In this document: piece by piece, positions 3,807 to 52,680 of the stretch
Layout of the letters: each line of letters starts with the position of its first letter
Numbering within the stretch: the first letter of the stretch is position 1
Assembly: GCA_963743915.1 (NCBI GenBank)
Contig: CAVURN010000002.1
Coordinates: forward strand, 288,001-352,000
Direction of reading: 5' to 3'
Length of the DNA: 64,000 nucleotides
Source of the DNA: an uncultured Actinomycetota bacterium
GTDB taxonomy: Bacteria; Actinomycetota; Actinomycetes; JAHEKZ01
Notes under the pieces: model-generated
Seen by the model: only the letters and a program-made list of their open reading frames with translations
Database searches by the model: none
What the model was told of the DNA's origin: nothing
Made by a program: the position numbers and the translations under genes

Positions 3807-3845
3807 GGGGAGCCTTCCTCGGTGCGGTGGACGGATGTCCTGGCT

Positions 3846-4035
3846 CCCCCTCTGTCATCGGTACCTGAGAGGTTCGCAGCCCGGTATGGGTCCCGGGGCT
3901 GCTTGCACCGTCGGTGGGGCTGGCGCCCGCTTTCCAGAGGTGCCTCGCCCAAGCGGTCCGGGTGCCTGAGAGTTTCTGGGGAGAATTGCTCCTTCGGCGT
4001 CCCCGCTGGCTGCGAGGAACTCTTCCGCCGGGGTC
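3846..4035 (-). ncRNA. Tandem glycine riboswitch
   Basis: Minus strand: GGAAGAG...CGCCGAAGGAGCAA...CTCTCAGG...CTCTGGAAAG...CACCGACGGTGCAA...CTCTCAGGT..GACAGAG; two aptamers directly upstream of gcvP. Confidence 0.92.
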
Positions 4036-4078
4036 GTCGGCGAGCGAAAGTCTACTCTCCGCCGGTGCTGCGGGCGCC

Positions 4079-4675
4079 TCAGCCGGTGCTGCGGGCGCGG
4101 CGTCGGGCGGCCAGCTCGTCGGAGGGGTCCGCGCCGTCGGCGCTGTCACTGGGACGCTCCCACGGCAGCTCGGCGAGGGAGCCCTCGACCTCGCGCCAGA
4201 CGCGTCCGACGGCGATGCCGAAGACGCCCTGCCCGCCCTGGACCAGGTCGATGACCTCGTCGGCGCTGGTGCACTCGTAGACCGAGGCGCCGTCGCTCAT
4301 GATGGTGATCTGCGCGAGGTCGTCGATGCCGCGCTCGCGCAGGTGCTGCACGGCTGTCCGGATCTGCTGCAGCGAGACGCCGGTGTCGAGCAGCCGCTTG
4401 ACGATCTTCAGCACCAGGACGTCGCGGAAGCTGTAGAGCCGCTGGGTTCCAGAGCCCGCCGCGCCGCGGATGCTGGGCTCGACCAGACCGGTGCGCGCCC
4501 AGTAGTCGAGCTGGCGATAGGTGATGCCGGCGGCGCTGCAGACGGTGGGACCGCGGTAGCCGATGTCCTCCGGCAGCGCGCGCACCTCGTCGGTGAACAG
4601 CAGGCCCTGCTGACCGGCCAGCGCTGCGGCCCGCGCTGCGGGCGGCCTCGTCCTGCTGGCCTCGTGGGTCTCCAC
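4079..4675 (-). CDS. MerR-family regulator (Rv1830-like)
   Basis: GYRGPTVCSAAGITYRQLDYWARTGLVEPS...QRLYSFRD; conserved position between nuclease and gcvP; start uncertain. Confidence 0.92.
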   Translation of the reverse strand: METHEASRTRPPAARAAALAGQQGLLFTDEVRALPEDIGYRGPTVCSAAGITYRQLDYWARTGLVEPSIRGAAGSGTQRLYSFRDVLVLKIVKRLLDTGVSLQQIRTAVQHLRERGIDDLAQITIMSDGASVYECTSADEVIDLVQGGQGVFGIAVGRVWREVEGSLAELPWERPSDSADGADPSDELAARRRARSTG

Positions 4676-4837: not shown

Positions 4838-4890
4838 AAGTCTCGACCACCAGTGGAGTCTTCGCAACCCTCAGGTGAAGGTTGAGGGTC
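4838..4890. promoter_or_regulatory. Two tandem 25-bp inverted-repeat sites (motif A, FtsR-box-like)
   Basis: AAGTCTCGACCACCAGTGGAGTCTT (4838-4862) and AACCCTCAGGTGAAGGTTGAGGGTC (4866-4890). Confidence 0.75.
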
Positions 4891-5434
4891 AGGAGGTGCT
4901 CTCCGGCCCGGTGGTGGGTCCGGCGCCGGGGTCCGGTGTGCCGAAGTCCTCCGGGGAGATCTCGTCGAGGAACTCACGGAACTTCTCGACCTCCCCGAGG
5001 TCGGCGCCCTCCGAGGCCTCCTCGTCTTCCTCGTCGCTCTCCTCCGGCATGGGGATGCCGGCCTCGTCCAGGACGTCCGGCGAGGCCACCACCGGGGCGT
5101 CCACCCGCAGGGCGAGCGCGATGGCGTCGGAGGGCCGCGCGCTGACCGTCACTCCCCCGTCGAAGACCAGCTCGGCGAAGAACACCCCGTCGTCGAGGTC
5201 GGTGATCTGCACCTCCTGGAGCCGACGTCCGAGCCCGGCGATGACGTCGGCGAGCAGGTCGTGAGTCAGGGGTCGCGCCGGCTCGACGCCCTGCTGGGCG
5301 TAGGCGATGGCGGTGGCCTCGACCGCGCCGATCCAGATGGGCAGGTAGCGCTCACCGTCGCGCTCGCGGAGCAGCACGATGGGCTGGTTCGTCGGCATCT
5401 CGACCCGGACGCCGACCACGTCGACCGGCTTCAT
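4889..5434 (-). CDS. Bifunctional nuclease family protein (DUF151)
   Basis: VVGVRVEMPTNQPIVLL...LPIWIGAVEA...RPLTHDL...SARPSDAIALA; TAGGCT-N6-ATG leaderless start. Confidence 0.95.
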   Translation of the reverse strand: MKPVDVVGVRVEMPTNQPIVLLRERDGERYLPIWIGAVEATAIAYAQQGVEPARPLTHDLLADVIAGLGRRLQEVQITDLDDGVFFAELVFDGGVTVSARPSDAIALALRVDAPVVASPDVLDEAGIPMPEESDEEDEEASEGADLGEVEKFREFLDEISPEDFGTPDPGAGPTTGPESTS

Positions 5435-5438
5435 GACG

Positions 5439-6236
5439 TCAGCCTACTCCGCACGCGCGGAGGCGGCCGCCCGTCAGCTGCGATCGGTCCGGTCCGAGCT
5501 GAGCCTTCACGAGCGCGGCGTGCAGCCGCACGCTCAGCGCGGCCAGCGCTCGGGTCGTCTCCTCGGCCCGGCCCTGGGCGTCGGCCCCCCGTCCGCGCTG
5601 CAACGGGGTCACCACCTGCTCGATGAGCCCGGCCTCCCGGTCGGCCGCCGACTTGAAGGCACGCAGGTGCCGCGGCTCGATGCCGTAGGCCGCGAGCTCG
5701 CCGGCGGCCGTCGGCGATGACCACGCGCGTCACCGTCGAAGTGCTCGCCCGTGCGGCCGGGGCCGACCAGCCCGTAGCTCTCCAGCGCGGACAGCAGGTC
5801 GTCGTCGATCTCGGCCGCGGCGAGCAGCTCGTCGCGGGACAGCCGGAGCTCGGACCCGTCGCGGGCGAAGTCGTCGGCCTCGGGGTAGCGGCTCCCCGGA
5901 CGACGGACACCGGGACCCGGGGGCTGGCGCCGGGCGCCGACGGTGGTTCGAGACCGCGGTCGATCGCCTCGAGGTGCTCGCGGATCACCTTCAGCGGCAG
6001 GTAGTGGTCACGTTGGGCGCCGAGGATGTAGCGGAGGCGGCTGAGTCCTCGGAGGTGAACTTGCGGTAGCCCGAGGGCGTCCGCTGCGGCTCGACCAGCC
6101 CCTCGGACTCCAGGAACCGGATCTTGGAGATCGTGACGTCGGGGAAGTCCGGCCGGAGCTTGCCGAGGACCTCGCCGATGCTCATGTAGGCGCTGGCCGG
6201 GATCGCGGTGCTGCGCTGACCGGCAGCGGGGCTCAT
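5439..6236 (-). CDS. ftsR: MerR-family regulator, FtsR/Rv1828-like (about 3 apparent frameshifts, probably assembly indels)
   Basis: [43 protein letters not shown], then [23 protein letters not shown], then [24 protein letters not shown] in shifting frames; directly after the garA/odhI homolog. Confidence 0.8.
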
Positions 6237-6753
6237 GCGGCGTCCCCGTCGGTGCGCGGGCGGGCCAGGAAGAGCATCCGGTACTTGCCGATCTGCACCT
6301 CGTCCCCGCCGACGCAGCAGCGCCTCGTCGATGCGGTCGCGGTTGACGTAGGTGCCGTTGAGGCTGCCGACGTCGCGCAACGGTGAAGCCGTCCGGGCCG
6401 CGACGGAACTCCGCGTGGTGCCGCGACACCGTGATGTCGTCGAGGAAGATGTCGCTGTCGGGGTGCCGACCGGCCGAGGTCACGTCGGCGTCCAGCAGGA
6501 AGCGCGCCCCCGACGCCGGACCGCGCCGCACGACCAGCAGTGCGGTCCCCTCGACCAGCCGCTCCACCATCGCGACGTCGGGGTCGGGCTCGGCGGTCTC
6601 CGCCTCGGCCTCGTGCGCGCTCTCGCCGGCACCGAGGTGCAGGACCGACGTGGTCTCCCCCGAGGACTCGCCCCCCAGGGGCTTGCCGCAGGCGGCGCAG
6701 AAGCGCGCGCCCGGGTCCTGCGTGTCGTGCCCGCAGTGGGGACAGACCGGCAT
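6233..6753 (-). CDS. garA: FHA-domain protein GarA/OdhI with N-terminal zinc ribbon (2 apparent frameshifts)
   Basis: CPHCG..CAACG, ETTS phosphorylation motif, [33 protein letters not shown]; TGA overlaps next ATG. Confidence 0.85.
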
Positions 6754-6787
6754 GCCGCCTCCCGGCGTCCGACGTGGTGCTCCACCC

Positions 6788-6843
6788 AAGGCTCAGGTGA
6801 AGGTTGAGAGTCCAACCTAAGCCGCGTCCAACCAGCCGGTCAA
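6788..6843 (-). promoter_or_regulatory. garA-ftsR promoter with motif A operator over the start site
   Basis: TTGACC (6838-6843)-N18-TAGGTT (6814-6819); AAGGCTCAGGTGAAGGTTGAGAGTC at 6788-6812 shares an identical 17-bp core with 4870-4886. Confidence 0.75.
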
Positions 6844-15897: not shown

Positions 15898-16090
15898 ATA
15901 CGAGAAGGGAGGTGGTCCAAGCTTGATAAGCCATAGGACACGTGAGGTGGCTGCCAGCTAGCCGCCGACTGACGGCCCACCGGTGCGCCATGAGGCGGCC
16001 GGCGAGTCCAAGGCAGTCACCCGACCCGCGGGCGCCGAGACATGTCCCTCGGTCCACCGGCAGCAACGCCGGGCCCGCGGGTCGTCCTTG
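15898..16090 (+). ncRNA. Candidate small structured RNA with 12-codon ORF
   Basis: TACCGT -10 (15886-91); AGAAGGGAGGTGGTCCA (15903-19); ORF TTG..TAG 15923-15961 (MISHRTREVAAS); 12-bp stem 16022-33/16073-84 enclosing two hairpins. Confidence 0.5.
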
Positions 16091-20375: not shown

Positions 20376-20389
20376 CTGCACAAACACCG

Positions 20390-20463
<74 letters not shown>

Positions 20464-23560: not shown

Positions 23561-23680
23561 GGCTCCTCCTTCAGGTCGGGCCGTGCGGTTCCTCCACCGG
23601 TGGTGGGTACGGGCGGTTGTGCAGTCGGCAGAGAGTATCGGGTGAGGGGAGACAGCCGCGCGGGCGTCGACGGGTCCCGG

Positions 23681-24772
23681 TCAGTGGGCCGACCAGCCGG
23701 CGGCGCGCAGCGCCTCGGTCAGCGGGGCCGCCTGGTCCGGGGACACCGACAGCTCGACCAGCCCGACCGGGTGCCCGGCCGAGTGCTCGAGCCGGATGTC
23801 CTCCACGCTGGCCCCGGCGTCCGCCACCGCGACGAAGAGAGCCGCCAGCGCTCCGGGCTCGTCCGGGATCACCACGGGGACGACCGCGTAGTCGGTGGCC
23901 GGCGTCCCATGCTTGCCGGGGATCCGGGCGTATCCCTCCTGACCTGCAGCGATCAGACGCTTGATGGCTTCATCGACTTCACGTCTTGTCGACTTGTCTG
24001 CAGCATGATCCGCCAGTGCGGCCCCGACGTCGGTGATCTCCTGGCCCAGGCTCCGCAGCAGGGGACCCACGACGGCGGCGTTCGCGGCCAGGATGTCGCT
24101 CCACATCGTGGCGTCGCTGGCGGCGATCCGGACGGTGTCCCGCAACCCCTGTCCGGCGAGCACCATGGCCTCTGCGCTCGCCTGCCGAAGCTCACCCGCC
24201 AGCGCGCTGGCCACCACCTGAGGGAGGTGCGAGACCAGCCCGACCGCCTGGTCGTGCTCCTCCGCCGACATCCGCACCGGATCGGCCCCGCAGTCCCGCA
24301 CCAGACGCTCCACCAGAGCCACCCGATGGTCCGGGACGCTGCTCGCCGCGCACACCGCCCACGGCCGGGCCTCGAAGAGGTCGGCTCGAGCCGCCGTCGC
24401 CCCGCTGCGTTCCCGCCCCGCCATCGGATGACCCCCGACAAAGCGCTCGGAAACCCCTAATCTCTGCGCCTCCAGTTGAGGGTCATACTTGATGCTCGAA
24501 ACATCACTAACCGTCGCCGAAGGATACAGACGGATGCACTCCTCCATGACCAGTCCCACCGCAGAGGGTGGCACGGCCAGCAGGATGAGCTCAGGGGCGT
24601 CCTCACACCAGCCCGCCTTCCCTGCTCCCAGGTCGGCCGCGACACGTTCCGCGCGGGGATCGGTGTCGTGGATCCACACCTGCCAGGGACGGTCCGAGAG
24701 GGCGAGACCCACCGAGGTCCCCAGAAGGCCGGCCCCCACGATCTGGAGCACAGCCTCCTCAGACCGGCTCAT
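23681..24772 (-). CDS. tyrA: Prephenate dehydrogenase with ACT domain
   Basis: GAGLLGTS, DVSSIK, GGHPMAGRE, HD.AV.LVSHLP, C-terminal ACT (IPDEPGALA). Confidence 0.95.
   Translation of the reverse strand: MSRSEEAVLQIVGAGLLGTSVGLALSDRPWQVWIHDTDPRAERVAADLGAGKAGWCEDAPELILLAVPPSAVGLVMEECIRLYPSATVSDVSSIKYDPQLEAQRLGVSERFVGGHPMAGRERSGATAARADLFEARPWAVCAASSVPDHRVALVERLVRDCGADPVRMSAEEHDQAVGLVSHLPQVVASALAGELRQASAEAMVLAGQGLRDTVRIAASDATMWSDILAANAAVVGPLLRSLGQEITDVGAALADHAADKSTRREVDEAIKRLIAAGQEGYARIPGKHGTPATDYAVVPVVIPDEPGALAALFVAVADAGASVEDIRLEHSAGHPVGLVELSVSPDQAAPLTEALRAAGWSAH
23974..23998. repeat. Motif B array inside tyrA (3 x 8 bp)
   Basis: CGACTTCA CGTCTTGT CGACTTGT; surrounding codons A/T-ending (GAT CAT GCT GCA, ACA AGA CGT GAA). 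Confidence 0.65.
24460..24484. promoter_or_regulatory. Degenerate motif A site inside tyrA
   Basis: ATCTCTGCGCCTCCAGTTGAGGGTC; codons GAC CCT CAA CTG GAG, AGA TTA, GTT AGT GAT GTT break the GC3 bias. Confidence 0.55.
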
Positions 24773-25128
24773 TGCGCGAGATCCTGTCGCAGCACCTCGG
24801 CGCCCCTCAGGTAGACGTGCACGATCTCGCCCCGGGGGCGGTCCAAGGCAGCGTGGGCCATGACCCGCACGACGCGCGGGAGGGCACCGACCACGTCGAG
24901 CTCCTGGGCACAGATCAGGGGCACGTCACCGATCCCCAGCGTGCGGGCCGCGGCGGCCGGGAAGGCGCTCCGGAGGTCGGGCGTGCTCGTGAAGATCACA
25001 CTGATCAGGTCGTCCGTGGTCAGGTCGTTCCGGGCTAGCAGCTCCCCCATCAGCTCGACCACGGCGTCGGCCATCTCGGTGGCGTCGTCGGCCCGCAGCT
25101 GGGTGGCTCCGCGGAGTGCTCTGATCAC
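24769..25128 (-). CDS. aroH: AroH-type chorismate mutase
   Basis: RALRGAT, FTSTPDL, FPA.AAR, CAQE, YLRGAEVLRQDL; TAGGGT-N6-GTG leaderless. Confidence 0.95.
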   Translation of the reverse strand: MIRALRGATQLRADDATEMADAVVELMGELLARNDLTTDDLISVIFTSTPDLRSAFPAAAARTLGIGDVPLICAQELDVVGALPRVVRVMAHAALDRPRGEIVHVYLRGAEVLRQDLAQ

Positions 25129-25177
25129 GGCGTCACCCTATCGGCCCCTCGATGAGCAGAGAACACGCCACATCGTC

Positions 25178-25440
25178 ATGTCGACTTCGTGTCTCGCCAA
25201 GTCGACAAAGTTCCTTTCGGAGAATCCCCTCCGCGCACGGACTCCAGGGGGTCCGGATCCCCCACCGACTTGTCGACATGCGGCGTTTCGTGGGGACTCT
25301 CCCTGCAGGTCAGGACCGCATCGCCCGGCTGGGCGATTCACGGGCAGCAGATCGGTCTGCCCCTCCGACTTGTCGACAAGCCGATGGCGGCGCCATGCCA
25401 GCGCCTCGCCTCACTATTTACCGACTAACCGACAAGTCGA
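25178..25440. repeat. Motif B cluster in rluB-aroH gap
   Basis: ATGTCGACTT-N11-AAGTCGACAA (25178-25208), CCGACTTGTCGACATG (25265), CCGACTTGTCGACAAG (25365), CCGACTAACCGACAAGTCGA (25421-40). Confidence 0.8.
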
Positions 25441-26176
25441 GAAGGTCCATCAGCTCACCCTGCTCATGACGGGTGAGCAGTCGGACCCCTCCGGGCCGGA
25501 GTCGACCGAGGCGGATGGGGCCGAACTGCAGCCGCACGAGGCGTCTCACCGGGAGTCCCACCTCGTCGAGCAGCCGGCGCACGATCCGGGTGCGGCCCAG
25601 GTGCACGGTGACCTCCACCTGGGCCTCGCCACCGGACTGGGCGACCAGCCGGAAGGCATCCACCGCGGCCGGTCCGTCCTCGAGCTCCACCCCTGCCCGC
25701 AGGCGACGGCCGACGTCCTTGGCGACCGGCCCGGAGACGACCGCCCGGTAGACCTTGGGCACCTCGAAGGACGGGTGGGCCAGCCGGTGGGCCGCCTCCC
25801 CGTCGTTGGTCACCAGGAGCAGCCCCTCGGTGTCGATGTCCAGCCGTCCGACGTGGAAGAGCCGTTCCGGACGGTCGGCCACCATGTCCCCCACGCACGG
25901 GCGCCCCTCGGGGTCCTGCATGGTGCTGACGGTCCCCAAGGGCTTGTTCAGCGCCAGGTACACGACGCCGGGAGCCGTGGGGATGCGCTCTCCGTCCACC
26001 CGGACCACCGCACGGGTCGGATCCACCCGCATCCCCTGCGTCCGGACGACCGTGCCGTCCACCGAGACCCGACCGGACGCGATCAGCTCCTCAGCGGCCC
26101 GACGGCTGGCGATACCAGCGGCCGCCAGGACTTTCTGGAGGCGAATACCCTCAGGCTTTGATTGAGGGTTAGTCAT
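25418..26176 (-). CDS. rluB: 23S rRNA pseudouridine synthase (RluB/RsuA family)
   Basis: RLQKVLAAAGIASRR S4 domain, LNKP, GRLDIDTEGLL. Confidence 0.93.
   Translation of the reverse strand: MTNPQSKPEGIRLQKVLAAAGIASRRAAEELIASGRVSVDGTVVRTQGMRVDPTRAVVRVDGERIPTAPGVVYLALNKPLGTVSTMQDPEGRPCVGDMVADRPERLFHVGRLDIDTEGLLLVTNDGEAAHRLAHPSFEVPKVYRAVVSGPVAKDVGRRLRAGVELEDGPAAVDAFRLVAQSGGEAQVEVTVHLGRTRIVRRLLDEVGLPVRRLVRLQFGPIRLGRLRPGGVRLLTRHEQGELMDLLDLSVSR
26146..26170. promoter_or_regulatory. Motif A site in first codons of rluB
   Basis: TACCCTCAGGCTTTGATTGAGGGTT; perfect ACCCTCA-N9-TGAGGGT. Confidence 0.75.
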
Positions 26177-26790
26177 AATTCGGCTTCAAGCGTCTCAAGA
26201 TCGGGGAGATAGGGCGCGATCTCTGGTAGCTCGTCGACGGAGGCGAGCCCGAGTCGCTCGAGGAAGTAGCTGGTGGTCCGGTAGAGGTGGGCGCCGGTTT
26301 CTCCGTCCGTCCCACACTCCTCGACCAGGCCCCGCGCCAGGAGTGTCCGCATCACCGCGTCCACGTTGACGCCCCGCACCGCCGAGATGCGGGCCCGGGA
26401 GACGGGCTGGCGGTAGGCCACCACGGCCAGGGTCTCCAGGGCGGCCTGAGTCAGTCGGGCGTGCTGGCCGTCGAGGACGAACCGTTCGACCGCCGTGGCG
26501 TATGCCGGGCTGCTGTAGTAGCGCCAGCCGCCTGCCACCTCACGCAGCACGAACCCGCGCCCCTGCTCGGCGTACTCCCCCGCGAGCTGCACGCAGGCCG
26601 CTGCGACCTCGGCCTCGGGGCGTTGCAGCACCTGCGCCAGCGTGACCGGGGCCACGGGCTCGTCCACCACCATCAGGATGGCCTCCAGGGCCGGGGCCAA
26701 CGCCAGCTCCTCGGCAGCCTGCTCGGTCTCAGCAGAAGGGTCGGTGTCGAGCGCCTCGTCAGGTGGCAGGTCCTCGGTCACGTCACTCAC
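26173..26790 (-). CDS. scpB: SMC-Scp complex subunit ScpB
   Basis: LEAILMV, LTQAALETLAVVAYRQPVSR..I..VRGV, Y.TT..FL. Confidence 0.96.
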   Translation of the reverse strand: MSDVTEDLPPDEALDTDPSAETEQAAEELALAPALEAILMVVDEPVAPVTLAQVLQRPEAEVAAACVQLAGEYAEQGRGFVLREVAGGWRYYSSPAYATAVERFVLDGQHARLTQAALETLAVVAYRQPVSRARISAVRGVNVDAVMRTLLARGLVEECGTDGETGAHLYRTTSYFLERLGLASVDELPEIAPYLPDLETLEAEL

Positions 26791-27664
26791 GGGTGTCCTC
26801 TCCGGCCGGCGGGACCGACGGCAGGTCGCGGGCATCGTCTTCGTCGAACTCGTCGTGGAGGTCGAGGTCGCCCTCGTCCGCGCCCGTCCACCGGACGGTC
26901 AGCTCCGCCAGCGGCTGGACCTGGTCGAAGGCCACGGCACCCTCACGGAAGAGCTCCAGCAGCGCCAGGAAACGGGCGATCACCGTCGTCGTGTCGCCGG
27001 CATCCCCCACCAGGGCACGGAAAGTGGCGGTCCGGCTGCGCCGCAGGCGGCTCACGAGCAGGGTCGCCTGCTCCTTGACGCTCACCGCCGGCGCGTGCAC
27101 GTGGCCGAGCGACACCTCGGGCACCGGCTTGGGCGTGAGCGCCTTGGCCGCCAGCGCGGCGAAGCCGTCCGGACCCACCCCGATCAGCACCTCCGGCAGC
27201 AGCGAGGCGAACTCCGGTTCCAGGCCCACTGCACGCGGGTAGCTCCGACCCGCGTGCGCCATGATCGAGGCCAGCTCGGCGGCCACCGTCTTGTAGGCGC
27301 GGTACTGCAGCAGCCGCGCGAAGAGCAGGTCGCGCGCCTCCAGGAGGGCGAGGTCGTCCTCGTCCTCGACCTCCGCCGAGGGCAGCAGGCGGGCGGTCTT
27401 GAGGTCCAGCAGGGTGGCCGCGACGACCAGGAAGTGCGTGGTCTGCTCGAGGTCCCAGGCGTCGCCGGCCGCCTTGATGTGGGCGATGAACTCGTCGGTC
27501 ACGACGCCGAGGGCCACCTCGGTGACGTCCAGCTTGTGCTTGGCGATCAGCCCCAGCAGCAGGTCGAACGGCCCCTCGAAGACCGGCAGGTGGACGTGGA
27601 ACGCCGCAGCCCCGGACTCCTGCGATGCATCGGGCACCGCAGGCTCGGTCGTGGTCGAGGTCAC
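26783..27664 (-). CDS. scpA: Segregation and condensation protein ScpA
   Basis: FEGPFDLLL.LI, FLVVAATLLDLK, FLALLEL; TACGGT-N6-GTG. Confidence 0.96.
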   Translation of the reverse strand: MTSTTTEPAVPDASQESGAAAFHVHLPVFEGPFDLLLGLIAKHKLDVTEVALGVVTDEFIAHIKAAGDAWDLEQTTHFLVVAATLLDLKTARLLPSAEVEDEDDLALLEARDLLFARLLQYRAYKTVAAELASIMAHAGRSYPRAVGLEPEFASLLPEVLIGVGPDGFAALAAKALTPKPVPEVSLGHVHAPAVSVKEQATLLVSRLRRSRTATFRALVGDAGDTTTVIARFLALLELFREGAVAFDQVQPLAELTVRWTGADEGDLDLHDEFDEDDARDLPSVPPAGEDTRE

Positions 27665-27718
27665 GGCGGAACCGTAGCCCAGGCGCCTGCCCGCCGGGCG
27701 ACCGGCGGGGCAGCCGGG

Positions 27719-28126
27719 TCAGCCCTCGCGCAGCCGACGGGCCACGATGCTCGCCTCGCCCTTGGCCGCGAGGTCGGCGACGACCACGGCCACCGCCTCA
27801 CGCACGATCCGGCCGCGGTCCACCTTCAGGCCCAGGTCGCGGTAGAGGGTCGACTTGGCCTCGTCGAGCGCGACCAGCTCGTCCGACGACAGGTAGACGG
27901 TGATCTTCTCGTCGTGCCGCTGGCGGCCCGACGGACGGCCCGCTCCCCGCTGCGCGCGCGAGGCAGGGGGTGCGATCTCTCGATCTTTAGGTGAGGTAGA
28001 GACTGTTTCCCCATCTGGGGATCGGGGCTGTGGAGGGCTGGTCTCGACCGCCTCGGCGAGAGCGGACGCCGACGAGGTGGTGCGGAAGAGCTCGGAAGCC
28101 CCTGGGAGGGCGGCGCGGCGACTCAT
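27719..28126 (-). CDS. Small ParA-associated protein, predicted C-terminal ribbon-helix-helix DNA-binding domain
   Basis: N-terminal MSRRAALPGASELF peptide, disordered linker, EKITVYLS (beta) - helix - VDRGRIVREAV (helix); start overlaps parA stop. Confidence 0.75.
   Translation of the reverse strand: MSRRAALPGASELFRTTSSASALAEAVETSPPQPRSPDGETVSTSPKDREIAPPASRAQRGAGRPSGRQRHDEKITVYLSSDELVALDEAKSTLYRDLGLKVDRGRIVREAVAVVVADLAAKGEASIVARRLREG
27975..28004. promoter_or_regulatory. Degenerate motif A site inside the RHH-like gene linker
   Basis: CTCGAT CTTTAG GTGAGG TAGAGA CT; codons GAA ACA GTC TCT ACC TCA CCT AAA GAT CGA are atypical. Confidence 0.45.
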
Positions 28127-29034
28127 CGGGCGAGCACCTCCTGCGCCAGCTGACGATAGGCGGCGGCTCCTGGCGACTTCGACGCGTAGCTGGTGATGGG
28201 CTCCCCCGCCACCGTCGTCTCCGGGAACCGGACGGTCCGGTTGATCACCGTGTGGTACACCCGGTCGCCGAACGCCTCCACCACCCGGGTGAGCACCTCG
28301 CGGCCGTGAGTCGTGCGGCTGTCGTACATGGTGGCGAGAATGCCATCAAGCTCTAGTTGAGGGTTAAGCCTTTCGGTCACCTTTGAGATGGTGTCCATCA
28401 GCAGAGCGACCCCTCGGAGGGCGAAGAACTCGCACTCCAGCGGGATGATCACCCCGTGCGCGGCCGTCAGTGCGTTCACCGTCAAGAGGCCCAGCGAGGG
28501 CTGACAGTCGATGAGGACGTAGTCGTAGTCGTCGGCGATGGTGGCCAGCCCGCGCCCGAGGGTCTGCTCCCGCGCGACCTCACCGACCAGCTGCACCTCG
28601 GCGGCTGACAGGTCGATGTTGCTCGGCAGCAGGTCCATGCCGGCCGTGTTGGTCTTCAGCAGGATGTCCTCCGCCTCGACCCCGCGGTCCATCAGCAGGT
28701 TGTAGACCGTGCGGTCGAGCTCGTGCGGGTTCACCCCGAGCCCGACCGACAGCGCCCCCTGGGGGTCGAAGTCGACGAGCAGCACCCGGCGCCCGAACTC
28801 GGCCAGAGCAGCGCCCAGGTTGATGGTCGTGGTGGTCTTCCCGACGCCGCCCTTCTGGTTGCACATGGCGATGATCCGCGCCGGACCGTGCTCGACGAGC
28901 GGTTCGGGCACCGGAAAGACCGGCAAGGGGCGCTGCGTGGGGCCCAGGGCACCCACCTGACCTGCGGAGATGCCGTCGTCGGCGACGTCCGGTGGGACCT
29001 CTGCGGCATCGGGGGTATTTGTCGACTTAACCAC
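28123..29034 (-). CDS. ParA/Soj-family ATPase (second ParA; Rv1708/PldP-like)
   Basis: NQKGGVGKTTT deviant Walker A, VDFDPQG, IDCQPSLG; upstream of scpAB. Confidence 0.95.
   Translation of the reverse strand: MVKSTNTPDAAEVPPDVADDGISAGQVGALGPTQRPLPVFPVPEPLVEHGPARIIAMCNQKGGVGKTTTTINLGAALAEFGRRVLLVDFDPQGALSVGLGVNPHELDRTVYNLLMDRGVEAEDILLKTNTAGMDLLPSNIDLSAAEVQLVGEVAREQTLGRGLATIADDYDYVLIDCQPSLGLLTVNALTAAHGVIIPLECEFFALRGVALLMDTISKVTERLNPQLELDGILATMYDSRTTHGREVLTRVVEAFGDRVYHTVINRTVRFPETTVAGEPITSYASKSPGAAAYRQLAQEVLAR
28341..28365. promoter_or_regulatory. Motif A site inside parA
   Basis: TGCCATCAAGCTCTAGTTGAGGGTT; codons GAA AGG CTT AAC CCT CAA CTA GAG CTT GAT GGC ATT are atypical. Confidence 0.7.
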
Positions 29035-29083
29035 GAATCTCTAAACCTCTCGGCAGACTTCACGACAAACCGTTCGCAGCCTA
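29019..29083 (-). promoter_or_regulatory. parA promoter with interleaved B-A-B sites
   Basis: -10 TAGGCT (29078-83); GACTTCACGACAA (29056-68), A half-site ATCTCTAAACCTC (~29037-49), TTGTCGACTT (29019-28). Confidence 0.6.
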
Positions 29084-29137
29084 GGCGGCGGTGACCGTGG
29101 GTGGCAACCCTGGTCGACTCCGGGTGGGTGCTGCCGG

Positions 29138-30118
29138 TCAGCCTCTGGCCCGTGGATGGGCCGCGGCGTAGACCTCGCGCAGCTTGTCCACCGTGACCAG
29201 CGTGTAGATCTGCGTGGTCGTCACGGAGGCGTGGCCGAGCAGCTCTTGCACCACGCGCACGTCGGCTCCGCCGTCGAGCAGGTGGGTCGCGAAGCTGTGG
29301 CGGAGGGTGTGGGGCGAGACGTCCTCGGTGATGCCGGCGTGCTCGGCGGCCGCCCGGAGCACGGTCCAGGCGCTCTGCCGGCTCAGCCGACCGCCCCTGC
29401 TGTTGAGGAACAGAGCGGGGACCCCGGAACCACGCTCGGCCAGGGGTGGGCGTCCACGGACCAGATAGGCCTCGAGCGCCTCGGTCGCGTACCGGCCGAC
29501 GGGGACCACCCGCTCCTTGCCCCCCTTCCCGGCCAGCCGCAGGACCGCCGACTCCCGGTCGAGATCGTCGACGTCGAGGCCCACCACCTCCGAGATCCGC
29601 GCACCCGTGCCGTAGAGCAGCTCCAGCAGCGCCCGGTCCCTCAGCTCCTTGGGAGTCCGGCCCTCGCCGGCGGCCGCGAGCAGGGCCTCGACCTGGTCGT
29701 ACCGCAGCGCCTTCGGCAGCCGCCGGGGTGGCGCCGGGGGCCGGACGTCCGCCGCCGGGTCCGTGGGAGTCAGCCCCTCCAACGCCGCGAACCGGTGGAA
29801 CCCGCGGACGGCCACCACGGTGCGGGCTGCTGAGGAGGCCGCGAGCGGTGGATGCTCCACGTCGCCCTCGCGCAGCCGGCCGAGGAAGGCGAGCACGTGC
29901 CCCTCGGTGACCTCGTCCGGTGCATGGACCCCGACCTCGCGCAGGAAGGTGAGGTAGCGCGCCAGGTCACGCCGGTAGGACGTCATCGAGTTGCGGGCCA
30001 GACCTCGCTCGAAGGTCAGGTGGTCGAGGTACTGGCGGACCGCCACCGACACCGGCGTGTCGCCGTCGGCGGGCCGCTCACCTGGCTCCGACTGCGGAGC
30101 TCCGGCGGTGCTGGGCAT
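29138..30118 (-). CDS. xerD: Tyrosine recombinase XerD
   Basis: [58 protein letters not shown]. Confidence 0.95.
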
Positions 30119-30152
30119 GCGGCGACCCTAGACTGCGCCACCCCCGAAAGGA

Positions 30153-30180
30153 CGAAGCCCCCGCCGCGGCGGGGGCTTCG
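30153..30180. terminator. Intrinsic hairpin after ald
   Basis: CGAAGCCCCCGCCGCGGCGGGGGCTTCG palindrome followed by TCCTTT on minus strand. Confidence 0.8.
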
Positions 30181-30191
30181 TGAGAGCAGGC

Positions 30192-31307
30192 TCAGACGAG
30201 GAGCTCGTCGACCGCGACGGTCGGCAGCCCGAACGCCTCGGCCACGGCCTCGTAGGTGATCTGTCCCTCGTGGGTGTTCAGTCCCGGGCGCAGGGCGGCG
30301 TTGCCCTTGAGCGCCTCACGCCACCCGAGGTTGGCCAGCTGCACGGCGTACGGCAGCGTGACGTTGGTGAGGGCGTACGTCGAGGTGTGCGGGACGGCGC
30401 CCGGCATGTTGGCCACGCAGTAGAAGACCGTGTCGTGCACCTTGAAGGTCGGGTCTGCGTGCGTGGTCGGGCGGGAGCCCTCGAAGCAGCCGCCCTGGTC
30501 GATGGCGATGTCGACGAGCACGGCGCCGGGCTTCATGCGCGCCACGAGCTCGTTGGTGACCAGCTTGGGTGCCTTGGCACCAGGGATGAGCACCGCGCCG
30601 ATGACGAGGTCGGCCTCGATGACGTCCTGCTCGATCGCGTACGAGCTCGACATCAGCGTCTGCAGGCGTCCCCGGTAGATCCGGTCGATCTCGGCGAGAC
30701 GCTTGGCGTTGATGTCGAGGATCGTGACGTGAGCCCCCATGCCGACCGCGATCTGCGCGGCATTCAGACCGGAGACCCCGCCCCCGAGGACGACCACCTT
30801 GCTGGCCTTGACCCCAGGCACACCGCCGAGCAGCGTGCCCCGCCCGCCGTTGGCGCGCTGCAGCGTGGCGGCGCCCACCTGCGGTGCCATCCGGCCGGCG
30901 ACCTCGGACATCGGCGCGAGCAGCGGCAACGAACGGTCGGGCAGCTCGACGGTCTCGTAGGCGATCGCCGTGGTGCCCGACGCCAGCAGCGCGTCCGTGC
31001 ACTCCTTGGACGCCGCGAGGTGCAGGTAGGTGAAGAGCACCTGCTCCTTGCGCATCCGGTGGTACTCCTCAGCGATGGGCTCCTTGACCTTGAGGATGAG
31101 GTCGCCGGTCTGCCAGACGTCGTCGGCGGTCGGCAGGATGGTGGCCCCGGCCGCGACATACTCGTCGTTGGAGATGGAGGAGCCGACGCCGGCGTCGGTC
31201 TCGAGGTAGACGTCGTGACCGTGGCGGGTGAGCTCGTGCACACCGGCCGGAGTGATGGCCACCCGGTACTCGTGGTTCTTGACCTCGCGAGGGATGCCGA
31301 CCTTCAC
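30192..31307 (-). CDS. ald: Alanine dehydrogenase
   Basis: [43 protein letters not shown]; 371 aa. Confidence 0.97.
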
Positions 31308-47373: not shown

Positions 47374-47492
47374 GTTCGGCGGCGTCCTACTCTCCCACGC
47401 AGTCTCCCACGCAGTACCATCGGCGCTGAAGGGCTTAGCTTCCGGGTTCGGAATGGGACCGGGCGTTTCCCCTTCGCTATGGCCACCGAAAC
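47374..47492 (-). rRNA. rrf: 5S rRNA
   Basis: GTTTCGGTGGCCATAGCGAAGGGGAAACGCCCGGTCCCATTCCGAACCCGGAAGCTAAG... Confidence 0.97.
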
Positions 47493-47595
47493 TCTATGGA
47501 GTTGTCCGGGCCGACGACCGGTGAAGGTCGAGGGCGGCCGACCGCAACTCGGGAACCGCACAGTGGACGCTTGAATACACGCAAATCTTGGTAAG

Positions 47596-50717
<3,122 letters not shown>

Positions 50718-51153
50718 CATTGACCACAAATTGATTTGTTTGGATGCTCGCGTCCACTGTGCAGTTCTCAAGGTACGGGCGGCGCGCAGTCCGTCGATCT
50801 CCCGGGTGCCGTGACGCGCACGGTCCTGCGGAAAGCGACTGCGGCCCACCGGTCCAGCGCCCCGAGGGGCGCCGGCCGGTCTGAAGGAGAGACACCGCGA
50901 GCACCTGCGCCGCCACCCGGAGGTGGAGCGAGGTGCTCGAAGCGGCCCGAACCCTCAGGACCCAACAGTGTGTCGGATGGCGTTCTCCACCTCGAGGTTC
51001 CACACGGCCGGCGAACCGGACGCAGTACTGACGAGGCGGGTGCAGCCACCCACTCAGCGATGTTCCACCCATGAGCAACCTCGGTGGGACGTGTGCCCAC
51101 TCAAAAGGCTCTGGACAGTCCGGACGCGCGACGGCGCCGAGCTGCCAGGTGCT

Positions 51154-52680
<1,527 letters not shown>

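Follow-up and report, generated by a model that had tools for sequence, protein, structure and literature searches.

A terminus-proximal ParA gene with a putative ribbon-helix-helix-like partner gene and two families of conserved short sites in an uncultured Actinomycetota bacterium

A cluster with a "second ParA" gene beside scpAB has been described with PldP in Corynebacterium, Rv1708 in M. tuberculosis, and ParA2 (SCO1772) in Streptomyces (accessible parts of PMC4255298 and of a 2025 PldP preprint), and in the accessible text of that preprint PldP was called an orphan, the function of which "remained enigmatic". For the regulator FtsR of C. glutamicum, a box in the ftsZ promoter, AACCCTAAAGTAAAGGTTGAGGGTA, was derived from chromatin affinity purification sequencing (ChAP-seq) with MEME and was bound by purified FtsR in electrophoretic mobility shift assays, and a similar sequence was noted in the promoter of the M. 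tuberculosis ftsZ gene (PMC6683498, accessible parts). ZapT of Caulobacter, a MerR-family protein, gave about ten chromatin immunoprecipitation (ChIP) peaks, mostly in open reading frames (ORFs) around the terminus (PMC7188993, accessible parts). Here, a second ParA gene (parA2) of an uncultured Actinomycetota bacterium is described together with the small ORF that follows it and two families of short sites around both, in a stretch of 64,000 nucleotides (henceforth the window; GenBank assembly GCA_963743915.1, contig CAVURN010000002.1, positions 288,001 to 352,000, i.e., G000:C2:288001-352000) from an assembly of 2.92 Mb with 70% GC in 5 contigs. Coordinates are those of the window unless a contig is named.

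On the minus strand of the window, the genes were arranged in the order xerD, parA2, a 135-aa ORF, scpA, scpB, rluB, a 289-bp spacer, chorismate mutase, tyrA, cmk, and der. This span is best explained as a conserved actinobacterial terminus-proximal cluster (xerD/parA2-small RHH gene-scpA-scpB-rluB/chorismate mutase-tyrA-cmk-der, RHH standing for ribbon-helix-helix). The gene parA2 (28123-29034, minus strand; Pfam AAA_31, 2.1e-61) encodes a ParA-like ATPase of the PldP/Rv1708 type with 303 aa, orthologs of which were present in 31/31 relatives; the deviant Walker A motif KGGVGKT, expected of the ATPase of a type Ib system, was invariant across 29 orthologs. The 135-aa ORF (27719-28126, minus strand) starts with an ATG that overlaps the stop codon of parA2 (ATGA). 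A preliminary description of this DNA had proposed that two motif families, A and B, mark the span and are bound by an FtsR-like MerR protein and by an RHH-like protein, respectively; it gave no motif sequences, and both motifs were therefore defined anew from the DNA. Both site families are real: they occur far above chance, are specific to the locus, show conservation at synonymous positions, and are found together with the RHH-like gene. The reading that we favor, to which we give about an even chance, is that of a chromosomal, terminus-proximal ParA-RHH module in the style of type Ib partition systems, autoregulated and linked to FtsR, with the binding of both proteins predicted from the sites.

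Motif B was defined as the 10-bp palindrome WWGTCGACWW, the flanks of which create an 8-bp TCGAYAAG rhythm. Six exact copies were present in the window (starting at 23986, 25178, 25199, 25270, 25370, and 29019), compared to 0.30 expected by shuffling, and none of 100 shuffles reached six. Genome-wide, 19 copies were found in 2.92 Mb, with 6/19 lying within the 5 kb considered here, i.e., within 0.17% of the genome. Three degenerate units (29059-29068, 25434-25443, and 23970-23979) were read by eye and brought the total to nine, so that the earlier count of at least eight units was borne out. At the 5' end of parA2, a degenerate B box in the leader (TTGTCGTGAA on the coding strand, 29059-29068) was followed by the Shine-Dalgarno sequence GAGAGG (29051-29046), the GTG start codon, and an exact B box (TTGTCGACTT, 29019-29028) over parA2 codons 3-5 (AAG TCG ACA), the boxes being ~41 bp apart, and CGACTTGTCGTGAAGTC at the leader box was conserved in the family alignment (14 aligned same-family loci, 65-74% nucleotide identity). 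With the ribosome-binding site as well as the start codon bracketed by two B boxes, this arrangement has, as read from the sequence, the geometry of an autoregulatory operator.

The 289-bp spacer between rluB and the chorismate mutase gene (25129-25417) contained four exact B boxes (25178, 25199, 25270, and 25370; 25178-25379 in total) and was the densest cluster of the genome, with 6 TCGAYAWR per 300 bp vs at most 3 elsewhere. In a spacer with little conservation elsewhere, these boxes formed conserved islands; they start ~50 to 250 bp before the conserved TAGGGT of chorismate mutase, and boxes were present in the same spacer of other families. A degenerate box (AAGTCGAGAA, 25434-25443) covered the last rluB codons, where the TCGAnnnn rhythm was visible in the family alignment. 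Inside tyrA, an exact box (TTGTCGACTT, 23986-23995) stood next to a degenerate neighbor (23970-23979; 23970-23995 together), and ATGTCGAYAA was kept at its position in family relatives. B boxes were thus found in coding and non-coding DNA alike, and in several families the box at the parA start lay in the untranslated leader and therefore does not reflect an amino acid constraint. The sequence TTGTCGACA was considered as a variant DnaA box (consensus TTGTCCACA), and this candidate was dropped, the boxes being palindromic, locus-specific, and tracking the RHH-like gene.

Motif A was defined as a 25-bp inverted repeat, AACCCTCAA-N7-TTGAGGGTT, and every 25-mer of the genome was scored against it, with a maximum of 18. 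Only three sites genome-wide reached at least 15/18, all of them in the window, at 4866 (16), 26146 (16), and 28341 (15), with 0.00 expected from shuffles; a lower tier comprised 20 further genome sites at 13/18, one of them at window position 6788. The best box of the genome (4866-4890; 16/18) was located between a BFN-nuclease gene and a second MerR gene (4079-4675), and the box at 6788-6812 (13/18) upstream of the FHA and ftsR genes. Within the span, one box (26146-26170; 16/18) covered rluB codons 3-10, just past the overlap of the scpB stop and the rluB start, and was semi-conserved in relatives, at times with other spacing, while another (AACCCTCAACTAGAGCTTGATGGCA on the coding strand, 28341-28365; 15/18) lay inside parA2 over the peptide LNPQLELDG. 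Two weak sites were counted by hand: an A-like site where the 135-aa ORF encodes its linker (27975-27999; 11/18), the equivalents of which scored 13-14/18 in some genus relatives, and a half-site in a low-GC patch of tyrA (GACCCTCAA..., 24460-24484; 12/18), in which only the left half is good. Beside the weak A-like site of the ORF linker, at 28009-28020, a small palindrome was also observed, which reads CCCCATCTGGGG here and CCCCAGCGGGGG in genus relatives.

This re-scoring changed parts of the preliminary description. Instead of five copies of motif A, the span held two strong (26146 and 28341) and two weak ones (24460 and 27975). The B-A-B order reported for the parA2 promoter dissolved, as the conserved Shine-Dalgarno stretch (GAGAGG...) occupies the place between the B boxes and no 25-mer there reached 13/18. 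That both motifs occur in tyrA was confirmed, with an exact B box at 23986 and a weak A copy (12/18, left half only).

Compared to the ftsZ box of C. glutamicum, the box at 4866 was identical in 21/25 positions, that at 26146 in 20/25, that at 28341 in 19/25, and that at 6788 in 18/25. Judged by this likeness, motif A belongs to an already known class of sites, that of the FtsR box, with new predicted targets here. An ftsR ortholog (5431-6236, minus strand, approximate limits, ATG at 6236) was present ~20 kb from the parA2 span and matched the NCBIfam model TF_FtsR_Actino (NF050798; C2:293496-294185; 164.6 bits summed, cut-off 150) in the usual neighborhood of an FHA gene, ftsR, the BFN nuclease gene, the second MerR gene, a glycine riboswitch, and gcvP. 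The link between motif A and an FtsR-like MerR protein was thereby strengthened, with FtsR as the predicted binder. In the zinc-ribbon/FHA gene upstream of ftsR (6350-6400, minus strand), an apparent 1-nt frameshift was observed near 6378 (GTT G CGC GAC), resulting in one ORF of 452 aa (5431-6789) that continues into ftsR; this may be an assembly error.

Co-occurrence was assessed in 63 fetched loci of related genomes, of which 46 carried the 135-aa ORF and 17 did not; one locus (L045) was excluded from these 17, since a weak profile match suggests a divergent copy. The core GTCGAYAW was found at most 700 nt before the ParA Walker motif in 40/46 loci with the ORF vs 2/17 loci without it, and a parA-internal A site (at least 13/18) in 30/46 vs 0/17. 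Per-locus totals of GTCGAYAW ranged from 1 to 13 with the ORF and from 0 to 4 without it. The same decoration recurred in other families, where B marked the parA start and the DNA after rluB, A lay within parA, and the junction of scpB and rluB carried an A-like site. Spanning ~20 families, the co-occurrence of motif B with the ORF agrees with the proposed link between motif B and the RHH-like protein, which would bind it.

Windows of 30 nt with at most 47% GC covered ~1.3% of the genome, and eight such patches were located within 23952-29069. In the intragenic patches, the share of codons ending in A or T (AT3) was 7/15, 9/18, 10/15, and 9/21, and 7/11 at the rluB start, compared to a gene-wide GC content at third positions (GC3) of 0.82-0.93; the earlier statement that intragenic copies sit in patches of A/T-ending codons was confirmed on this basis (7/15 to 10/15). 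The parA A site read CTT AAC CCT SAA CTA GAR CTT GAY GG in 13/14 aligned family loci. Its peptide LNPxLELxG, a general ParA motif, was identical at site-bearing and siteless loci, and the codons differed: A/T-ending codons made up 5-8/9 in site-bearing loci, where the gene-wide AT3 was 0.05-0.27, vs 0-2/9 in loci without the 135-aa ORF, with 8 loci that had no regular-expression match left out of the comparison. By this codon evidence, the intragenic parA A site is selected at the DNA level. Third-codon conservation by itself did not discriminate the embedded sites, as the strong GC3 bias conserves many windows. A third conserved low-GC element of tyrA (24495-24520; TTAGTGATGT..AGC.TCAAG) spans the peptide SDVSSIK, falls outside motifs A and B alike, and retained its A/T-ending codons both in the family and in the relative G023.

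For the 135-aa ORF, 7439 homologs were detected at E ≤ 0.001 in a large protein collection, and those with names were nearly all hypothetical proteins. A profile search placed the family in 134/251 sampled genomes of the class and 61/124 genera (G039 and G044, both unpublished, are counted in these tallies), nearly always as a single copy; it was present in 15/15 genomes of one genus with genomes of 7-10 Mb and also in an Embleya record. In 30/30 fetched loci from ~17 families, the ORF lay immediately 3' of parA, often with overlapping stop and start codons. In two loci from genomes of 1.4-1.5 Mb with 50% GC (L055 and L056), the parA-RHH pair was kept with scpAB and xerD on the opposite strand; the parA-start box of this family reads AAATCGACATTT, and L055 has two 16/18 FtsR-type boxes 36 bp apart upstream of scpA.

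The alignment of the protein family showed three parts, namely an N-terminal peptide (MSRRAALPGAxELFR, with R3, R4, and R15 invariant), an indel-rich variable linker, and a conserved C-terminal domain (EKITVYLSxDEL...DRGRIVREAVAVVVADL), the strand EKITVY of which was near-invariant across families. In the AlphaFold2 model, residues ~71-120 formed an extended segment, then two helices and a third, short one (predicted local distance difference test, pLDDT, 81-94). In an unbiased alignment of the model with 48,161 representative chains, mostly RHH proteins came out on top with Z values of 3.4-5.3, among them TraM (Z 5.3), ParD2, pCXC100 ParB, PrpA, PutA, CopA, TacA, NikR, MazE, AmrZ, omega, ParG, and MatP (3vea, Z 3.4); the values are low, as would be expected of a domain of ~50 residues. 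The C-terminal fold is accordingly described as RHH-like, not as proven RHH, and the earlier call of an RHH-like protein after parA is supported by the model to this extent. In sequence-based searches, the family had no match in a profile search of PDB sequences, in NCBIfam, or in Pfam; Pfam at E ≤ 10 on 30 members returned chance families only, and the ESM Atlas unnamed actinobacterial clusters only.

With respect to the chromosome, dnaA and the GC-skew minimum were located on contig C3, while the cumulative skew of C2 had a plateau maximum at ~216-297 kb. The dif consensus has an 11-6-11 layout. The sequence ATTATGTNAA was unique in the genome, at C2:284,938 (L098:1938), ~3 kb before the window start, within CCGCCGATAATCGACATTATGTCAATAC, which by its 11-6-11 look and its place on the GC-skew plateau is a dif-like site. 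It lies 31 kb from parA2 and 8-10 kb from the ftsR cluster. The strict dif pattern GATAATN6TTATGTCAA (2 mismatches) gave no plausible site in 5 genomes, and a looser pattern found one. The 21-mer CGATAATCGACATTATGTCAA occurred as a single exact copy in the relatives G006, G003, and G010 and with one change in G018, at distances from parA of 28.5 kb (G006), 33 kb (G003), and 28.6 kb (G018), and on another contig in G010; in G006, on a contig of 2.94 Mb, it was ~0.4 kb away from the position that lies opposite dnaA. In other families, complete or near-complete genomes had the locus at a distance from dnaA of 0.28-0.49 of the chromosome, whether or not the RHH gene was present, so that terminus proximity of the cluster is common, not universal.

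All three motif A sites of at least 15/18 lay 8-32 kb from the dif-like site, two of these predicted sites inside ORFs. Among relatives, predicted FtsR-type boxes lay within ~31 kb of dif in 3/4 (G018), 2/2 (G003), and 1/3 (G006) cases, and the four sites of G023 were in parA, 12 kb away, 112 kb away, and 7 kb from dnaA. Predicted FtsR-type boxes are thus few per genome and concentrated near the terminus, and the place of the locus, 31 kb from the dif-like site, fits the analogy with ZapT. The box of G023 near dnaA (G023:C1:1,500,953; ~7 kb from dnaA in this 5.2-Mb relative) was near-perfect, with 1 mismatch of 18.

Under the favored module, the 135-aa protein would bind WWGTCGACWW, with a C-terminal RHH dimer reading the GTCGAC core. 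MetJ, Arc, and CopG-type proteins provide the basis for matching palindromes to RHH dimers, and a symmetric 10-bp palindrome suits a symmetric dimer, which points to the 135-aa protein as the putative binder. From the boxes that bracket the ribosome-binding site and start of parA2 the protein would autoregulate its operon, and it would have further boxes within tyrA and ahead of the chorismate mutase promoter. The N-terminal peptide of the protein, conserved and rich in arginine, is the likely contact to ParA2; the tails of ParG, omega, and ParB contact their ParA, and partners that stimulate ParA keep an N-terminal peptide apart from the DNA-binding domain. FtsR or its paralog would bind the A boxes that are written in rare codons into parA2 and the rluB start, which would tie the operon to the ftsZ regulator and division control. 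ParA2, the 135-aa protein, and the boxes would then resemble a type Ib partition module, but a chromosomal one, 31 kb from dif. That the box cluster is a centromere-like cargo positioned by ParA2 is a plausible though rather unlikely extension. Still further goes the proposal of a terminus-linked partition-like machine in many Actinomycetota, in which the box-bound RHH protein is cargo and activator of ParA2 and an FtsR-family MerR protein acts like ZapT, which holds the terminus at the division site, and which couples ftsZ expression, SMC-ScpAB supply, and terminus position; this we regard as speculative and improbable. The tie of SMC-ScpAB to the sites consists of the conserved operon and gene order alone.

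Several observations weigh against the favored module. The spacer boxes are dispersed (21, 71, and 100 bp apart), unlike the contiguous repeat array of classic type Ib centromeres. A core box near parA was missing in 6/46 loci with the 135-aa ORF and a parA A site in 16/46, so that neither site type is obligatory for the protein. The genomes compared are related and non-independent, and the co-occurrence counts, while spanning ~20 families, overstate the evidence. The Z values reached 5.3 at best, and according to the tool's note a Z below 8 can reflect a common arrangement; Foldseek with the 135-aa model gave no match against the PDB at E ≤ 0.001. Upstream of ftsZ of this genome, the best motif A match was 12/18, at an estimated ~95 bp before the ATG. 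The nine strongest ChAP-seq peaks of C. glutamicum FtsR given in the accessible part of PMC6683498 include none at pldP, scpAB, rluB, or tyrA. In C. glutamicum, the RHH gene and the embedded site may both be absent. Finally, the second MerR gene (4079-4675) could encode the motif A binder in place of FtsR.

This last option, or binding by both proteins, is an unlikely one in our estimate, and the paralog gene presumably takes the Rv1830 position of the mycobacterial cluster. Immediately upstream of this gene is the genome's best box, the paralog has a MerR_1 domain, and the weak ftsZ upstream match (12/18) fits such a binder. Yet the paralog scored only 19 bits on the FtsR model, and the box is identical in 21/25 positions to the site bound by purified C. 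glutamicum FtsR (PMC6683498, accessible parts). Somewhat more room must be given to plain regulation, which we consider possible though rather unlikely: the RHH protein would be an autorepressor that also controls chorismate mutase-tyrA-cmk-der, the MerR boxes would tune internal or downstream promoters, and ParA2 would have no DNA cargo here, acting, e.g., as a MinD-like factor for the division site or in Tat positioning, with no centromere-like function at all. The boxes around the Shine-Dalgarno sequence and start of parA2 occupy a classic operator position, and the spacer array is upstream of the putative chorismate mutase promoter. FtsR is a documented transcription factor (PMC6683498, accessible parts), and PldP/Rv1708 were tied to the choice of the division site and to the dynamics of TatA, while the accessible parts of the sources report no centromere (2025 preprint; PMC10482377). 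However, the B box inside tyrA, the A site deep in parA2, and the A site over rluB codons 3-10 are odd positions for simple operators and are nevertheless kept in rare codons over many families; moreover, the RHH protein retains an N-terminal peptide separate from its DNA-binding domain, and the distance to dif was conserved in four family genomes. The preliminary description had favored a second centromere-like hub over simple promoter operators. The boxes at the parA2 start have the layout of an autoregulatory operator, and by analogy with type Ib systems, in which operator and centromere are often the same sites, a centromere role beside it is plausible.

Two further alternatives concern the nature of the sites. 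Binding of motif B by XerD/XerC, with the boxes as dif-like half-sites comparable to the SMC-unloading XerD sites of the B. subtilis terminus, is very unlikely. Its appeal lies in the neighborhood, with xerD immediately upstream, scpAB on the downstream side, and dif at a distance of 31 kb, in the sequence TTATGTCGACA that genus relatives read at the parA start, sharing TTATGTC with the XerD arm of the dif-like site, and in the release of SMC at the terminus by XerD as cited in PMC11898615 (accessible parts). Against it, the box tracks the RHH gene (40/46 vs 2/17), while many loci have xerD upstream of parA whether they carry the ORF or not, which argues against XerD as the B-box binder; a search of the B boxes for dif/XerD-type sites found no 11-6-11 architecture, all being 10-bp perfect palindromes, and the boxes of this genome lack TTATGTC. 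An action in RNA, by mRNA hairpins or rare-codon pauses in place of DNA sites, is more improbable still. Motif A can form a hairpin of 7-9 bp, some relatives keep the complementarity at the rluB start with another loop length, and all three coding A copies share the frame xAC CCT CAA. In 30 parA A sites, though, the pairs 5-21 and 7-19 were broken in 16 and 11 sequences, respectively, without compensatory change, so that an RNA hairpin does not explain the parA A site; in addition, the copies at 4866 and 6788 are intergenic and in promoter regions, and B boxes are both coding and non-coding.

The remaining genes of the span, all on the minus strand, were assigned with Pfam as follows: xerD (tyrosine recombinase, 29138-30118; Phage_integrase, 1.5e-48, and Phage_int_SAM_1), scpA (26783-27664; SMC_ScpA, 3.8e-54), scpB (26173-26835; SMC_ScpB, 1.2e-48), rluB (pseudouridine synthase, 25418-26176; PseudoU_synth_2 and S4), chorismate mutase (24769-25128; CM_1, 5.7e-41), and tyrA (prephenate dehydrogenase with ACT domain, 23681-24772; PDH_N, PDH_C, and ACT). 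A scan for E. coli-type promoters and terminators made no call in 23600-30300, so that the two promoters named here are drawn from conservation only. The putative parA2 promoter (29078-29107, minus strand) has a -35 element TTGCCA (29107-29102), an 18-nt spacer, and a -10 element TAGGCT (29083-29078); the blocks TTGCC and CCTAGAGT (TAGAGT-like), 18 nt apart, were kept across the 14 aligned family loci. The putative chorismate mutase promoter (25126-25140, minus strand) has a -10 element TAGGGT (25140-25135), conserved 6 nt before the GTG start (25128), and GCTAGGGTG was kept there in the same alignment; the start is likely leaderless. Rfam at gathering thresholds gave no RNA family within 23-30 kb of the window. 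Metatranscriptome contigs from relatives with 90-99% identity included pieces spanning the parA/ORF and ORF/scpA junctions, from which no inference was drawn, as assembled contigs of this kind reveal neither starts nor strand nor a single transcript, and the libraries may contain DNA. Between ald and xerD, a perfect palindrome with 19-nt arms (ACGAAGCCCCCGCCGCGGCGGGGGCTTCGT, 30152-30181) is probably a bidirectional terminator without a T-run. Elsewhere in the window, a tandem glycine riboswitch before gcvP (3842-4037), a match to the small RNA Ms_IGR-5 (15898-16090), tRNA-Pro(GGG) (20389-20463), and a complete rRNA operon (47374-52679) were found.

A limited literature search returned no description of the 135-aa partner gene or its sites. 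If the RHH protein and the boxes are partner and sites, the orphan "second ParA" would gain a defined cargo and a chromosomal place beside dif. The FtsR boxes in coding sequence would extend the FtsR regulon beyond ftsZ and are a clear instance of a protein-coding and a DNA-binding code that overlap and have been retained across many families. Judged by gene order, parA2 is the same as PldP, Rv1708/MSMEG_3743, and SCO1772; in contrast to PldP as an orphan, a dedicated RHH-like gene comes after parA2 here and in 134/251 genomes. The FtsR regulon of C. glutamicum (Rv1828 in M. tuberculosis) shares with the present sites the 25-bp imperfect inverted repeat and the FHA-ftsR-BFN-MerR-gcvP neighborhood, whereas here the strongest boxes are found within parA2, at the beginning of rluB, and in the cluster around ftsR, not at ftsZ. 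As with ZapT, a MerR-family protein is predicted to have few sites, mostly intragenic and near the terminus; ZapT, however, is without a defined motif and works with ZapA/ZauP, while for FtsR the motif is clear and the role as ftsZ activator is documented. MatP of the MatP-matS system of E. coli contains an RHH element and was a weak fold match; it binds about two dozen sites across a macrodomain, whereas the boxes here fill one 5-kb locus. From the type Ib systems (TP228 ParF-ParG-parH, pSM19035 delta-omega, and pCXC100 ParA-ParB), the module differs in being chromosomal, single-copy, vertically conserved in about half of the class, and near dif, in sites that are 10-bp palindromes dispersed over 5 kb and partly inside genes, in an N-terminal extension of ParA2 of ~50 residues, and in a partner for which no sequence similarity was detected. 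What it has in common with them is a ParA and, after it, a small protein that combines a flexible N-terminus with an RHH-like domain, short repeated sites at the promoter of the operon itself, and fold matches of the partner that include omega, ParG, and pCXC100 ParB.

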